A DNA stretch of 10,153 nucleotides, taken from positions 1 through 10,153 of the forward strand of contig JAZGDW010000206.1 in NCBI GenBank assembly GCA_036478295.1, read 5' to 3'. Shown piece after piece: positions 6,001 through 10,153 of this stretch (its first letter is position 1; each line of letters opens with the position of its first letter). The stretch is from Candidatus Krumholzibacteriia bacterium. GTDB taxonomy: Bacteria > Krumholzibacteriota > Krumholzibacteriia > WVZY01. Position numbers: made by a program.

Positions 6001-9000
6001 GCCTGATGCAGCGCTCGCGCAGGATGATGAGCTCCTCACCGACTACGAGAAGTCGGGGTACAAGGCGACACCGCGCTACGAGGAGACTATCGACTACTGC
6101 AAACGTCTCGCCGGCGCTTCGCGGTGGCTGCGCTACACGACGTTTGGCACCAGTCCACAGGGCCGCGATCTGCCGCTTATCATCGTGGACAAGCACGAAA
6201 ATTTCACGCCGAAGCGCGTGCGCGGCAAGGGCAAGATCGTTCTGCTGATCCAGGCGGGGATTCACTCCGGCGAGATCGATGGCAAAGACGCCGGCTTCAT
6301 GCTGCTCCGTGACATCGCCGTGTCCCGGAAATACCCCGGCTTCCTCGATCACGTCGCGATCCTCTTTATTCCCATCTTCAGCGTGGACGGCCACGAGCGC
6401 TTTGGCCCCTACAACCGCATAAACCAGAACGGTCCCGAAGAAATGGGATGGCGGGTGACGGCGCAGAACCTCAATTTGAACCGGGATTATCTCAAGGTCG
6501 ACTCGCCGGAAATGCGCGCCTGGCTCGAGTTGTGGAACGAGTGGCGGCCGGATTTTTTTGTCGACTGCCACGTCACCGACGGTTCCGATTATCAGTACGT
6601 GGTGACCTACGGGCTGGAGGTCTACGGCGGTCTGACGACCGCGCTCTCCAACTGGACGAAGGATGTCTACATTAAAGATGTCGGCAAGAACATGGCGGTG
6701 TCGGGCTTTGACTTCTTTCCTTATGTAGGTTTGATAGAGCGGCCCGACCCGAGGGGCGGGATGCGAAGCTGGGTGGCATCGCCACGGTTCTCGACCGGCT
6801 ATACCGCCATTCATAACCGGCCCGGACTCCTGATCGAAACCCACATGCTCAAGGACTACAAGACACGGGTGACCGGTACCTACGAGCTGCTCAGGCACAC
6901 GGTGGATCTCCTGAACCGCGAGCACGCGGGGCTCAAGAAAGCCATCGAGCAGGCGGAGCGTTACACGGCCAGCAGCGAATTTCGCCGCAAGCCATTTGGC
7001 GTTAAGTACGAGCCCGATCCAGAGGGCGTCGACATCGATTTCAAAGGTATAAAGTTTACGGCGGGAAAGAGCGACCTTACCAACGGGACCTGGTTCAAAT
7101 TCAGCGGTGAGCCAGAGACCTTCCGCATCAAGTGGCTCAACAAGCAGAGGCCGACCGTCCTGGTCGATTTGCCGGAGGCCTACATCGTGCCGGTCGAATG
7201 GCAGGCCGTGATCGAACGGCTCGAGCTGCACGGCGTGGAGGTCAGGAGACTCAAGCGGCCCGTGACGCTGACCGTCGATTCGTACCGTTTCAAGAATCCA
7301 AAATGGAAACAGCAGCCGTTCGAGGGCCGCCACGAGCTCACGGTGGACGTCGAACCCATGCAGGAAGAACGCACCTACCCCGCGGGATCGGCCGTCATCG
7401 ATATGAACCAGCCCTTGTCGCAAGTGGCCGTGCACGTTCTCGAGCCAGGTGCGCCGGACTCCTACGTTCACTGGGGGTTCTTCGATACTATTTTCGAGCG
7501 CAAGGAATACGCGGAGTCGTATGTCATGGAGAAAATGGCGCGGGAGATGCTGGCGAACGACGCAGCGCTGCGTAGCGAGTTCGAAGCGAAGAAGGACGGG
7601 GACCCTGAGTTCGCGGCCGATCCGAGGGCGATTCTCGACTGGTTCTACCGGCGCACGCCCTACTGGGACGACCGTATCAACGTATACCCGGTCGGAAAGA
7701 TTTTCGAGCGCGACCGCGTGAACGCACTTCGCTGAGGCAGCGGAGAGCGCGCTGTTGATTTGGTGACGGCCCGTCGTCGGAGCCAGCAAGGGGCGCCAGG
7801 TGGCCGAGCGAAGCGGAGCGCGGCACCGGAGACAATTCCACAGTGCGCCGCCCCCTGACCTCCGCGAACAGTGTGTCACCGTAGACCGTTCACGCGGTTT
7901 GTGCGAGAATGCCAAACGCGATGTTCGGCGAGGTAGTTTTATGCGGCCGCCGCTGCGGCCGTCATGAGGAGGTATTCATGCGTTTTCCCGGAATGCTTGC
8001 AGTTTGCGCCGCAGTGATCGCCCTACGGGCGACACCGGCACTTGCATTTCCCACCTTTTCGAGTCCGGTGCACGGGACGCTGGTGTTCCTGCACGTGTTC
8101 GGTGCCATCATTTTTCTCGGCAACCTGATCGTGAGCGCGATGTGGATGGCGAATGCCCGGCGAACGGCCAACCCTGAAGTCCTTTACTTCGCCTCACGAA
8201 TGGTGGCGCGCGCCGACCGGATATTCACGCTGCCCGGCATGGTGTTGATTCTGGTGCCCGGGTTGCTCGTGACAGGGCCCTTCGGCGGATTTCCCGGGGC
8301 GGCCTGGGCCGAGCTGGCGCTGGGCCTGTTCATTATCACTGCGGTCATATGGGGCGCTTTTCTCGTTCGCCTGCAACGAAGTATGATCGAGCTATCGCGC
8401 CAGGCGGTGGTGCAGAAAGTAGCGCTAGAGGAACGCTACTACGATGTTTTCAAACGGTGGATAATGTTTGGCGGGATCGCGACCCTGCTGCCCGTGATCG
8501 CACTGTTCCTGATGGTTTTCAAACCGCATCTGTGGGGGCCGGCGAAATGATTCGCCCGCCCGCTCGCGGTACCGGTGGCGGCAGGGTGACAGGGCACGCA
8601 GGGACGGTTGATCCGCCCGCTCGCGGTACCGGCGGCGGCGGGGTGACCAGCCACGCACACGGATGGTTCGCAAAACGTTGGATTGGAGGTGCATCGTGCT
8701 AAGACAAGTACTGCTTGTTATGTCGGTTTGTTGTGCTCTTCTGGTTCCGAAGCCTGGTGCCGCCGGGGAGGCCGTGCCGACCCAGGTCATGGTGCGTGCC
8801 ATCGCCAAGGACGCAAAGATTATCGGCACCAAGGTGGGCGGCGTTCGCGTGACCATTCGTGATGCGGCGAGCGGCAAGGTGCTGGCGCAAGGCATGGCGC
8901 AGGGCAAGACCGGCGACACCAAATTGATTATGGTCGAGCCGCACGCGCACGGCGCGTCGCTGTACGACACGCCGGGAGCCGCCGGTTACCTGGCCACCCT

Positions 9001-10153
9001 GATGCTCTCCGAACCCACCGTGGTCGAGGTGATCGCCGAGGGCCCACTGGGACATCCGCAGTCCACCCAGCGCGCCAGCAAGACGTTGCTGCTCCTCCCC
9101 GGCCGGGACGTTCTCGGTGACGGCGTGGTTCTCGAGATCCACGGCTTTACCGTGGAAATCCTCGAGCCCGCCGCTGCGGGCCGCTTGCGCCGCGGAGAGG
9201 AACTGACGGTCCGCGCCCGCGTTACCATGACCTGAGGCTGTCCTACCGAGCCCGGGGGGCTCTGGGATGCCGACAAGATGGACGTAATCGCCCGCCTCAT
9301 GCAGCGCGGCCGCGTCATGACCGAAGTACCGCTCGCGTTTTCAGGCGAACAAAGTATCTACTCGGGGGTTATAAAGGTGGAGCACTCGGGGCGTTCGGAG
9401 CTGCAGGTGCTGGCCATCCAGCCAGAGACGGCGAATTTCGGGATTATCAAACAAAGGCTCAAGGTTCGTAATTAAGTTCGGATTTCGTTTCATCCTTTTG
9501 CTCGCTGCTGCGGCATTGGGGATTGCTCCCGTGGCGGAGGCTTCATGGGCCGGGGCCGGCTCACCCGCGGGCGTCGTCCAGGAAGCAGAGCACCGCGCCC
9601 CTGCCGGAGAGGTCCAGGCCGCCGAGCGAATCGCCCCTGCCGGGGAAAGTCTGCCCACGGAAGACCGCATCCGCATCGCCGAGGCGTTTCGCATTGCGGA
9701 TGAGCTGGGTGAAAAGGTCTGGCGCGGTTGGAGCGATGCGCCGCGGGCGCTGCTGCTCGTTACGCGCGACAGGGAATACCTCGTCCGCCATCCGTACCCC
9801 ACCGGCGACTTCACACGTGTGGGGTACGATTCGCTGCTTCGAAGCGATGTGTATACACGGGAACGCGTGTACGACCCGAAGCTCCTCGCGACCTTTCCCG
9901 CGGTCGCCGGCGTGCCCACGATCGTCATCGGCCAACCCCGAAACACCGATGCCAGCCATTCCACGCGCTGGGTGATGACACTCCTGCACGAACACTTTCA
10001 CCAGTGGCAGCTGTCGCAGCCGGGGTACTACGATGCGGTAGCTGGCCTTGGCCTCGCCCGTGGCGACACGACCGGCATGTGGATGCTGAACTACGACTTT
10101 CCCTACGACTCGCCGGAGGTGGCGGCCGCCTTCTCCCATCTGTGCAAGAGCGC

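Follow-up and report, generated by a model that had tools for sequence, protein, structure and literature searches.

Evidence for a new family of exported selenoproteins with a U-G-C motif, encoded in a Candidatus Krumholzibacteriia bacterium

The window analysed here, a stretch of 10,153 nucleotides of the genome of a Candidatus Krumholzibacteriia bacterium, contains at positions 8696–9475 of the plus strand what is best explained as a single intact selenoprotein gene; taken as a whole, and with the redox proposal made below included, this explanation is considered probable. The searches and comparisons presented here support the assignment of its product to a widespread new family of exported selenoproteins for which neither Pfam nor NCBIfam has a model, the decoding itself being entirely conventional.

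Gene and reading frame

The gene runs from GTG 8696 to TAA 9473–9475, and its 259 codons include a sole internal stop, TGA 9233–9235, at residue 180. Translation with TGA=U gives the context TMT-U-GCPTEPGGLWD and a protein that ends in ...KQRLKVRN; it also reproduces the single 259-codon frame, broken only by an in-frame TGA, that had been described in the first-pass annotation. GTG 8696 was preferred over the in-frame ATG 8663 because GGAGG lies 6 nt before it. The blastn search revealed a 35-nt direct repeat within 8400–8800, a segment in which TRF detected no tandem array.

8685..8689, plus strand: Shine-Dalgarno-like GGAGG, 6 nt upstream of the GTG start (sequence)
8696..9475, plus strand: selenoprotein gene, 259 codons and TAA, merging the former calls g01185 and g01186 (TGA=U translation; homologues span the TGA)
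9233..9235, plus strand: UGA decoded as selenocysteine, residue 180 (alignment column; TGA recurrence in genomes and metagenomes)
9239..9241, plus strand: TGT codon of Cys182, the partner of Sec in the U-G-C motif (sequence; C182 present in at least 90 % of 87 diverse members)

Recurrence of the TGA codon

In the alignment column of TGA 9233, two further loci (L007, L008) also carry TGA, and L002–L006 encode the Cys of CGCP. Among the best 80 metagenome relatives the motif codon is TGA in 11, TGC in 68 and TGT in 1, and the alignment of the TGA with the first Cys of C-G-C, noted before for homologues, holds for L002–L006 and for 69 of these metagenome loci. A Sec-specific DNA pattern, in which the synonymous stem sites were left free, collected 54 loci from species-representative genomes, mostly of Acidobacteriota; 53 of them have TGA at the identical codon, and three of these lie on complete chromosomes. 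The only pattern locus without TGA at this codon, L033, was rejected as a chance match. An even sample of 150 further Acidobacteriota genomes yielded 7 family members, 5 of which bear a TGA (counted regardless of its position); one of the five lies in an unpublished genome, G113. Contigs of strain variants, 95–97 % alike and assembled from runs of two other studies, span 9233–9235, and none of their listed differences falls between 9224 and 9279. No RNA run was listed among the runs that contain the locus. In the homologue alignments, protein conservation continues past the UGA across phyla. Truncated gene calls in the databases stop exactly before the UGA site.

A constrained SECIS hairpin

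The sequence directly downstream of the UGA folds into a hairpin with the features of a bacterial SECIS element (bSECIS).

9236..9271, plus strand: bacterial SECIS hairpin (fold, −22.0 kcal/mol; Sec/Cys comparison; bSECIS model)
9248–9253 / 9257–9262, plus strand: upper stem, with the apical loop GGG at 9254–9256 (fold)
9240–9245 / 9263–9268 and 9236–9238 / 9269–9271, plus strand: lower stem (fold)

The GGG loop had been recognised in the first-pass annotation, which placed the start of the hairpin 3 nt after the UGA and its energy at −25 kcal/mol; in our fold it begins immediately after the UGA, and the 45 nt that follow the codon have an MFE of −22.0 kcal/mol. The hairpin core, GAGCCC-GGN-GGGCUC, begins 12 nt downstream of the UGA, and the third base of its loop is variable. 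According to the legend of Fig. 2 in PMC13188914, the bSECIS model describes a loop of 3–9 nt with G at the first two positions, an upper stem of 4–16 bp, a distance from UGA to loop of 16–37 nt and an MFE of at most −7.5 kcal/mol. The present hairpin agrees with this model on all four counts, with a GGG loop (3 nt), a 6-bp upper stem, 18-nt spacing and −22.0 kcal/mol. When the entire window was scanned against Rfam (E<=10), only chance snoRNA or sRNA matches appeared, and no SECIS family was among them.

Tested against shuffled sequences, the 96-nt hairpin context gave z = −0.63, an energy that is by itself ordinary for such GC-rich sequence, and the evidence for the hairpin therefore lies in the comparison of Sec with Cys forms. 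The stem codons hardly vary among 60 distinct Sec forms (GAG 60/60, CCC 57/60, GGG 60/60, CTC 58/60), whereas the same codons occur in 41, 38, 12 and 3 of 62 distinct Cys forms, respectively. The loop codon GGN is free in the 60 Sec forms (T20, C20, G13, A7). At the six positions of the upper stem, canonical pairing is seen in 60, 60, 60, 60, 60 and 57 of the 60 Sec forms versus 33, 33, 40, 13, 62 and 48 of the 62 Cys forms, and the mean MFE, in a comparison that ignores phylogeny, is −20.15 versus −14.35 kcal/mol. Constraint on the synonymous sites of the hairpin is thus restricted to TGA forms, which supports the reading of the codon as Sec.

Selenocysteine machinery

The genome, which is 91 % complete, contains a tRNA-SeC, selB (383.5 bits) and selA (476 bits), while selD is present only as a fragment at a contig end (positions 1–79 of 311) with a TGA of its own; all four elements had been listed before and were found again. 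Four of five other genomes carrying Sec forms also possess selB. The gene resembles bacterial selenoprotein genes in general (model of Zhang and Gladyshev, as given in PMC13188914) in having a UGA aligned with Cys, an apical loop with G-G 18 nt after the UGA, and SelA, SelB and tRNA-Sec encoded in the genome.

Family size, conservation and novelty

Our search reproduced the 931 homologues at E<=1e-3 reported earlier, mostly of 260 aa and 50–63 % identical over 86–99 % of the protein; the family comprises 755 clusters at 50 % identity. Nine residues of the motif had previously been called invariant. Across 87 diverse members W190 is indeed invariant and C180, G181 and C182 are conserved in at least 90 %, but P183, E185, P186, G188 and D191 lost this status, having been called invariant because the sample was narrow. 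N247, K41 and some Gly, Pro and Thr residues are also conserved in at least 90 % of these members, and no His or Met ligand is found among the positions that reach this level.

The family tree, with 59 Sec and 70 Cys rows, contains at least six Sec/Cys changes, and the Sec forms are deep and diverse. In some lineages Cys has probably taken the place of Sec. In G001, a genome of the same genus, about 640 nt are missing, among them the 5' two-thirds of the gene, so that only a 3' remnant is left; the gene is for this reason regarded as dispensable in this lineage. Fusions with PF00144 serine hydrolases were also encountered (P0123 on 5 contigs, P0134 on 2), in numbers too small to support a conclusion. 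A look-up of clusters gave no cultured host by name.

Searches of Pfam and NCBIfam with 25 members found no family over cut-off, as the first-pass annotation had stated, and at E<=10 returned only sub-cut-off Ig-like matches (Big_6 for 10/25, GlgE_dom_N_S for 9/25). A sequence-profile search of the PDB gave no relative (best E 0.38), and the ESM Atlas, queried with a natural Cys homologue, returned unnamed clusters only. Unlike catalogued selenoproteins, the family lies outside all 119 families and subfamilies of the 2026 catalogue, a reported absence that the complete Table 1 of PMC13188914 bears out; nor is it described in the accessible passages of PMC13188914, PMC13326102 (BSepDB) or PMC12013277 (deep-Sep).

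Predicted structure and export

The model described before, a signal peptide followed by two sandwiches with generic Ig matches in the PDB, was recovered, but its pLDDT of 73 is superseded: with a deeper alignment the AF2 model reaches 95.8, and the two beta-sandwiches are again generic.

8696..8767, plus strand: predicted signal peptide, approximately residues 1–24 (AF2 helix 2–15, first strand at 27, hydrophobic stretch, similar leaders in homologues)
8774..9139, plus strand: predicted beta-sandwich domain 1, approximately residues 27–148 (AF2 strands 27–133 and 139–148; pLDDT 97–98)
9140..9472, plus strand: predicted beta-sandwich domain 2, approximately residues 149–259, E-set/Ig-like (AF2 model; VIA-align)

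The signal peptide is predicted to export the protein from the cytoplasm, leaving a mature form that would consist of the two beta-sandwiches. In the model, U180-G181-C182 is located in a long conserved loop after strand 169–178 of domain 2. In VIA-align, residues 150–259 resemble many E-set domains, none of them outstanding, with Z values of 9–12 for matches that include the GlgE N/S and mannanase Ig domains and the dimerisation domain of sulfite dehydrogenase, and Foldseek against the PDB retrieved tandem-Ig matches only (TM <= 0.33).

Comparison with known proteins

A close parallel is offered by DUF1573 (PF07610), whose U-G-C selenoprotein is listed in Table 1 of PMC13188914 and which is also encoded in the genome studied here (G000, C87:9315-9599, 'VQPG*GCTVAQ'). 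Both are exported Ig-like beta-sandwich proteins with U-G-C or C-G-C and with Sec/Cys pairs within one clade. In the AF2 model of the present protein the motif directly follows a beta-strand, and the sequence pattern of DUF1573 would fit a similar placement. Unlike DUF1573, the new family has two domains and its motif runs on as P-x-E-P-G-G-x-W-D. Homology with DUF1573 was considered and rejected: none of 25 members matches PF07610 at E<=10, and hhalign gives a probability of 0.9 % with the C-G-C sites unaligned.

The UGC-containing TlpA-family disulfide reductase (cd02966; Table 1, PMC13188914) likewise has a periplasmic U-G-C, presumed to form a selenenylsulfide pair. TlpA has a thioredoxin fold, however, whereas the present protein is modelled as all-beta with two sandwiches and has no thioredoxin-like match in Pfam or NCBIfam. 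A further comparison can be drawn with SoxY, an Ig-like sandwich protein of the periplasm whose functional Cys lies in a C-terminal GGCGG arm. The likeness consists in the periplasmic Ig-like sandwich with Cys and in the SoxA/TsdA-type cytochrome genes that adjoin members of the Cys crown clade. Unlike in SoxY, the C-G-C is internal and the C-terminus carries no such arm, no Sox family is matched in Pfam or NCBIfam, and the link to sulfur genes is confined to one subclade.

Gene context

Three gene contexts were distinguished among the loci, and they differ between subclades. Members of the 'RLL-U' subclade show translational coupling to an SSF symporter gene at 16 loci, with a LarA-like gene alongside. 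The neighbours in the Cys crown clade encode a Tat-exported thiosulfate-dehydrogenase-like protein and a TsdA/SoxA-type dihaem cytochrome, joined at some loci by a SorA-like Mo enzyme. The neighbouring genes in the present window are unrelated to either context. The sulfur gene pair was not found in any Sec-form locus examined, the genome studied here giving one weak match to a TsdA query (E 7e-4), and no partner gene conserved across the family emerged from the neighbourhoods compared. Gene neighbourhood was dropped as a family-wide functional clue, since the contexts are subclade-specific and the sulfur link is found in one subclade.

Proposed decoding and function

On the evidence of sequence, it is highly likely that the gene is decoded as follows. 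During translation the hairpin 9236–9271 would recruit SelB with Sec-tRNA(Sec); UGA 9233–9235 would then be read as selenocysteine, yielding a precursor of 259 residues. The signal peptide would direct this precursor out of the cytoplasm, where Sec180-Gly-Cys182 would be displayed on the loop of domain 2. What the protein does there is more tentative. Our best guess, made by inference only and somewhat less than an even bet, is that U-G-C forms a redox centre with a vicinal selenenylsulfide, in which Sec180 would attack and Cys182 would resolve. Such a U-x-C centre, carried on a scaffold unlike thioredoxin, could react by exchange with the thiols, disulfides or persulfides of a partner in the periplasm.

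Alternative explanations

Neither fold nor gene context discriminates between redox activity and metal or chalcogen binding. The protein may be a true selenoprotein that uses its U-G-C to bind a chalcogen or a soft metal (Cu(I), Zn, Hg, Cd) and serves in the periplasm as a chaperone, carrier or sensor module; we consider this possible but rather unlikely. Among the catalogued selenoproteins with short U/C motifs, several have to do with metals: the SO_0444 Cu/Zn efflux transporter (UxC) is one example, and the CopZ-like, YHS and MerT-like proteins are others (Table 1, PMC13188914). Periplasmic beta-sandwich metal chaperones exist as well, and one of them, CrdA, is among the generic structural matches (Z 9.0), but it scores no better than the generic background, and a metal site would also have to do without a conserved His or Met ligand. 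The coupling to the SSF symporter in one subclade also speaks for this reading. A carrier of sulfur species would fit the thiosulfate-dehydrogenase-like neighbours of the Cys crown clade, although sulfur genes are missing from all Sec-form loci examined and the host genome has only its single weak TsdA-query match.

The TGA could instead terminate translation, giving a truncated protein of 179 residues, perhaps together with a second product of 65 residues started at ATG 9278, or marking a decaying pseudogene in this lineage. The genome uses TGA as a normal stop, gene callers split the gene (P0002 is a truncated call), and the sister genome G001 keeps a 3' remnant only. Nevertheless, this reading is very unlikely: the protein sequence encoded 3' of the TGA is conserved between phyla, all four of the listed differences of the strain variants downstream of the UGA fall at third codon positions (manual count), the 259 codons contain no further stop or frameshift, the hairpin constraint is specific to Sec forms, and a cut at residue 179 would, in the model, split domain 2 in mid-sandwich.

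That the TGA is an error for TGC, one base away and the commonest codon at the site in metagenome relatives, or is reassigned to a standard amino acid has a negligible probability: the objection of an assembly error, raised in the first-pass annotation, is removed by the recurrence of the TGA in dozens of independent genomes (53 loci, complete chromosomes included), in metagenome contigs and in strain-variant assemblies from other runs without a listed difference at the site, and global reassignment is ruled out because TGA is the terminal codon of 5 of the 7 neighbours in the window and of 35 of the 53 Sec-form genes themselves.

Significance

With the selenocysteine reading, the prokaryotic selenoproteome gains a family of 755 clusters, one of a small number of exported selenoproteins that lack a thioredoxin fold. 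This family is overlooked by homology-driven catalogues and by annotation pipelines. Its Sec forms are stored in databases as 5' truncations, and the constrained hairpin provides a simple signature for their re-annotation. In a protein that is otherwise uncharacterised, the position of Sec points to the C-G-C loop as the functional site. A more far-reaching and rather speculative view, which we hold to be improbable as a whole, is that Sec was the original state of the family and the Cys forms are repeated later replacements, and that the U-G-C loop on an Ig-like scaffold represents a new kind of selenium-dependent catalyst of the periplasm, either a chalcogen transferase or a C-x-C-type oxidoreductase unrelated to thioredoxin, common in uncultured Acidobacteriota of soil and sediment and in neighbouring phyla. 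The ratio of TGA to Cys forms in the even sample of Acidobacteriota (5:2) indicates that soil and sediment lineages thought to be poor in selenoproteins may use more selenium than their annotation suggests.

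A gene interrupted by one UGA codon

The host genome of contig C120 comprises 3.52 Mb in 316 contigs and is 90.9% complete; the window is the entire C120 (10,153 bases). The features discussed here are as follows.

4722-5861, + strand: FAD oxidase (N-methyl-L-tryptophan oxidase model, 475 bits, cut-off 257)
8556-8590 and 8613-8647, intergenic, DUF2269 gene to selenoprotein gene: 35-nt direct repeat, 94% identical, 57-nt spacing
8696 (GTG) to 9473-9475 (TAA), + strand: predicted selenoprotein gene, 259 codons, GTG preceded by GGAGG
9233-9235, + strand: TGA, the sole internal stop, residue 180, context TMT-U-GCPTEPGGLWD
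9236-9271, + strand: hairpin directly after the UGA, -22.0 kcal/mol (fold of the 45 nt after the codon)
9248-9253 / 9257-9262, + strand: upper stem GAGCCC/GGGCUC (RNA fold)
Between 9253 and 9257, + strand: loop GGG (RNA fold)
9498-10151, + strand: ORF of a predicted secreted HEHFH-motif protein, starting 22 nt after the selenoprotein stop and running off the contig end

A word-indexed protein search reproduced the homologue figures of the first-pass annotation: 931 homologues at E<=1e-3, mostly of 260 aa and 50-63% identical, all spanning the TGA and named solely 'hypothetical protein'. An exhaustive HMMER run from a profile of 25 members recovered 755 representatives of 50%-identity clusters (482 at E<=1e-10, 190 at E<=1e-30). 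No Pfam or NCBIfam family exceeded its cut-off for the window protein or 25 relatives, as had been claimed, and a PDB sequence search found no relative. The long invariant motif proposed earlier stood only in part. Across 87 diverse members, C180, G181 and C182 are conserved to at least 90%, as are T29, K41, several Gly, Pro and Thr residues, N247 and G249, and W190 is invariant together with P135 and G150; the remainder of the motif is partly an effect of narrow sampling. In the Sec forms an RNA constraint on E-P-G-G-L contributes to it as well.

Recurrence of the TGA

Homologues are present in 8 of the 61 genomes searched (relatives of the window's genome, itself counted). The aligned column holds Cys in five and TGA in three: the window's genome, the same-genus genome G001, and G060, a member of a different family in the same class, whose protein is 39% identical and reads 'LTMM*GCSVEPGGLWD'. 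Species-representative genomes were searched with a Sec-form-specific DNA pattern in which every synonymous site was left free. It retrieved 54 loci; 53 are in-frame homologues with TGA at the corresponding codon, and one (L033, Micromonospora) is a chance match. Most of these loci belong to Acidobacteriota MAGs, three complete chromosomes are included, and the other labels are Gemmatimonadota, Nitrospirota, Krumholzibacteriota, Methylomirabilis, Binatia and Cytophagia. Loci identical over the compared stretch were counted once (L008 = L022 = L032; L007 = L057). Since L022 and L032, which share one sequence over that stretch, are filed under two different phyla (Binatia and Krumholzibacteriia), the binning of this short contig is uncertain.

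An alignment-based scan of metagenomes gave 278 relatives, and in the best 80 of them the codon is TGA in 11, TGC in 68 and TGT in 1. The family also occurs in 7 of 150 further genomes sampled evenly from the phylum of genome G061; five, including the unpublished G113, carry one internal TGA (counted irrespective of codon position) and two carry none. Database gene calls of 178-196 aa end exactly short of the TGA site (e.g., ...VHML, ...VRML). Sequencing runs of two other studies yielded contigs 95-97% alike that span 9233-9235, and among their better-supported differences, those listed, none falls between 9224 and 9279. Third codon positions account for 25 of the 38 differences listed within the gene and for all four listed downstream of the UGA. 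At the same time, TGA serves as an ordinary stop: it terminates 5 of the 7 genes nearby as well as 35 of the 53 Sec-form genes. Codon reassignment is therefore excluded, and so is the assembly error that the first-pass annotation had left as a caveat, as the same TGA recurs in other genomes, metagenomes and independent assemblies.

The recoding signal and Sec machinery

According to the legend of Fig. 2 in PMC13188914, a bSECIS element has an apical loop of 3-9 nt with G in its first two positions, an upper stem of 4-16 bp, 16-37 nt from UGA to loop and an MFE of at most -7.5 kcal/mol. The hairpin agrees with all four of these legend criteria, with a UGA-to-loop distance of 18 nt. Its energy is unremarkable for GC-rich sequence (z = -0.63, 96-nt context), and no Rfam model matches it. 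Decisive, at the level of sequence, is the comparison of Sec with Cys forms rather than hairpin energy.

Table. Upper stem in distinct Sec and Cys forms
Feature: Sec (n = 60); Cys (n = 62)
Codon GAG: 60; 41
Codon CCC: 57; 38
Codon GGG: 60; 12
Codon CTC: 58; 3
Canonical pairs 1-6: 60, 60, 60, 60, 60, 57; 33, 33, 40, 13, 62, 48
Mean MFE (kcal/mol): -20.15; -14.35

The difference in MFE has a Mann-Whitney p of 7e-15, a statistic that ignores relatedness. In the loop codon GGN of the 60 Sec forms the third base is free (T20, C20, G13, A7). The Sec forms diverge by up to more than 1 substitution per site on the tree, so that the fixation of synonymous stem sites reflects selection.

The window's genome encodes tRNA-SeC(tca), selA (476 bits) and selB (383.5 bits); selB exceeds its cut-off in 59 of 61 relatives and in 4 of 5 other Sec-form genomes. 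For SelD, the N-terminal motif was matched solely by a fragment at a contig end (C118:2-229, -), which contains a TGA of its own and thus represents a Sec-type SelD cut by assembly.

Relation to known selenoproteins

The family's absence from the 2026 catalogue was borne out by the complete Table 1 of PMC13188914, where it is missing from all 119 families and subfamilies and U-G-C is listed solely for DUF1573 (PF07610) and a TlpA-type reductase. A passage of PMC13326102 states that BSepDB rests on 111 known families, and none of deep-Sep's nine new families is the present one in the parts of PMC12013277 consulted. DUF1573 is the closest analogue, sharing predicted export, an Ig-like fold and, as judged for DUF1573 from its sequence pattern, probably U/C-G-C after a strand. 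However, none of the 25 family members searched matches PF07610, and profile-profile comparison found no relation (probability 0.9%). The TGA form of DUF1573 also occurs in many relatives and in the window's genome (L077, C87:9315-9599, -, 'VQPG*GCTVAQ'); among loci L065-L088, relatives carry TGA and Cys forms next to each other, in some cases as tandem paralogues within a single contig. Judged from sequence, the gene almost certainly encodes a genuine selenoprotein, decoded in the conventional way, and its family is widespread but neither catalogued nor characterised.

Evolution

The tree comprised 129 distinct rows (59 Sec, 70 Cys), with eight loci excluded because their frames were short or missed the motif, and four more as duplicates. 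The minimum is 6 Sec/Cys changes, of which well-supported branches force 5. Sec forms make up the deep branches, among them a clade of 22 rows that is Sec throughout, and one crown clade contains 63 of the 70 Cys rows. Sec may possibly be the ancestral state, put no more strongly because the genome loci were picked by Sec pattern and the tree is unrooted. In G001 the locus is syntenic (DUF2269, gene remnant, downstream gene), and a deletion of ~640 nt (L008, G001:C123, 668-713, against window 8538-9181) has removed the gene's 5' two-thirds, or the first ~160 codons; the 3' remnant retains TGA and hairpin.

Gene context and predicted function

Within the window, the selenoprotein gene has as neighbours the genes of a DUF2269 membrane protein, an N-methyltryptophan-oxidase-like enzyme, an M14 peptidase and the HEHFH protein. 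The FAD oxidase lies among M14 peptidase, isoaspartyl peptidase/asparaginase and MBL-fold genes. ORF 9498-10151 has a signal-peptide-like start and an HExxH motif (HEHFH), matches no Pfam or NCBIfam family, and is conserved and syntenic in G001 (86% aa identity, tblastx); it may encode a secreted metallopeptidase and be co-transcribed. The 35-nt repeat has no further copy in the window's genome and was unreported by TRF; in run X6 one strain-variant contig 'goes back 57' there, i.e., has an extra copy.

Neighbourhoods differ from subclade to subclade. In the all-Sec 'RLL-U' clade an SSF symporter is translationally coupled to the family gene (16 loci) and a LarA-type isomerase gene is divergent to it. 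In the Cys crown clade, ~28 of 47 loci carry divergent genes for a Tat-exported thiosulfate-dehydrogenase-like protein (weak match) and a TsdA/SoxA-type dihaem cytochrome, and 7 additionally a SorA-like molybdoenzyme. At locus L129 this pair (L129:5076-5777 and L129:4166-4975, both -), divergent to the family gene, encodes a 234-aa Tat-signal protein (NF052225, 60.9 bits, below cut-off) and a 270-aa dihaem cytochrome with a SoxA/TsdA domain; ~27 similar metagenome loci show the same pair. None of the Sec-form loci examined has these sulfur genes, and a TsdA query gave a single weak match in the window's genome (E 7e-4). Two architectures, P0123 (680 aa, its cluster on 5 contigs) and P0134 (709 aa), fuse the two-sandwich module, with C-S-C replacing C-G-C, to serine hydrolases of the PF00144 beta-lactamase family, and both domain orders occur.

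AlphaFold2 with the 87-sequence alignment (pLDDT 95.8, pTM 0.87) predicts a leader helix (residues 2-15) and two beta-sandwich domains, for which Foldseek and VIA-align returned generic Ig/E-set matches and nothing more specific. In this model U180-G-C182 opens loop 179-195 after strand 169-178. As gene contexts differ between subclades, we commit only to the active-site loop and its likely chemistry. The main rival to a redox reading, binding of a soft metal or chalcogen by U-G-C, seems rather unlikely. The Sec residue singles out the U-G-C loop as the predicted active site, and its most likely chemistry, tentatively, would be redox or exchange at a vicinal selenenylsulfide.
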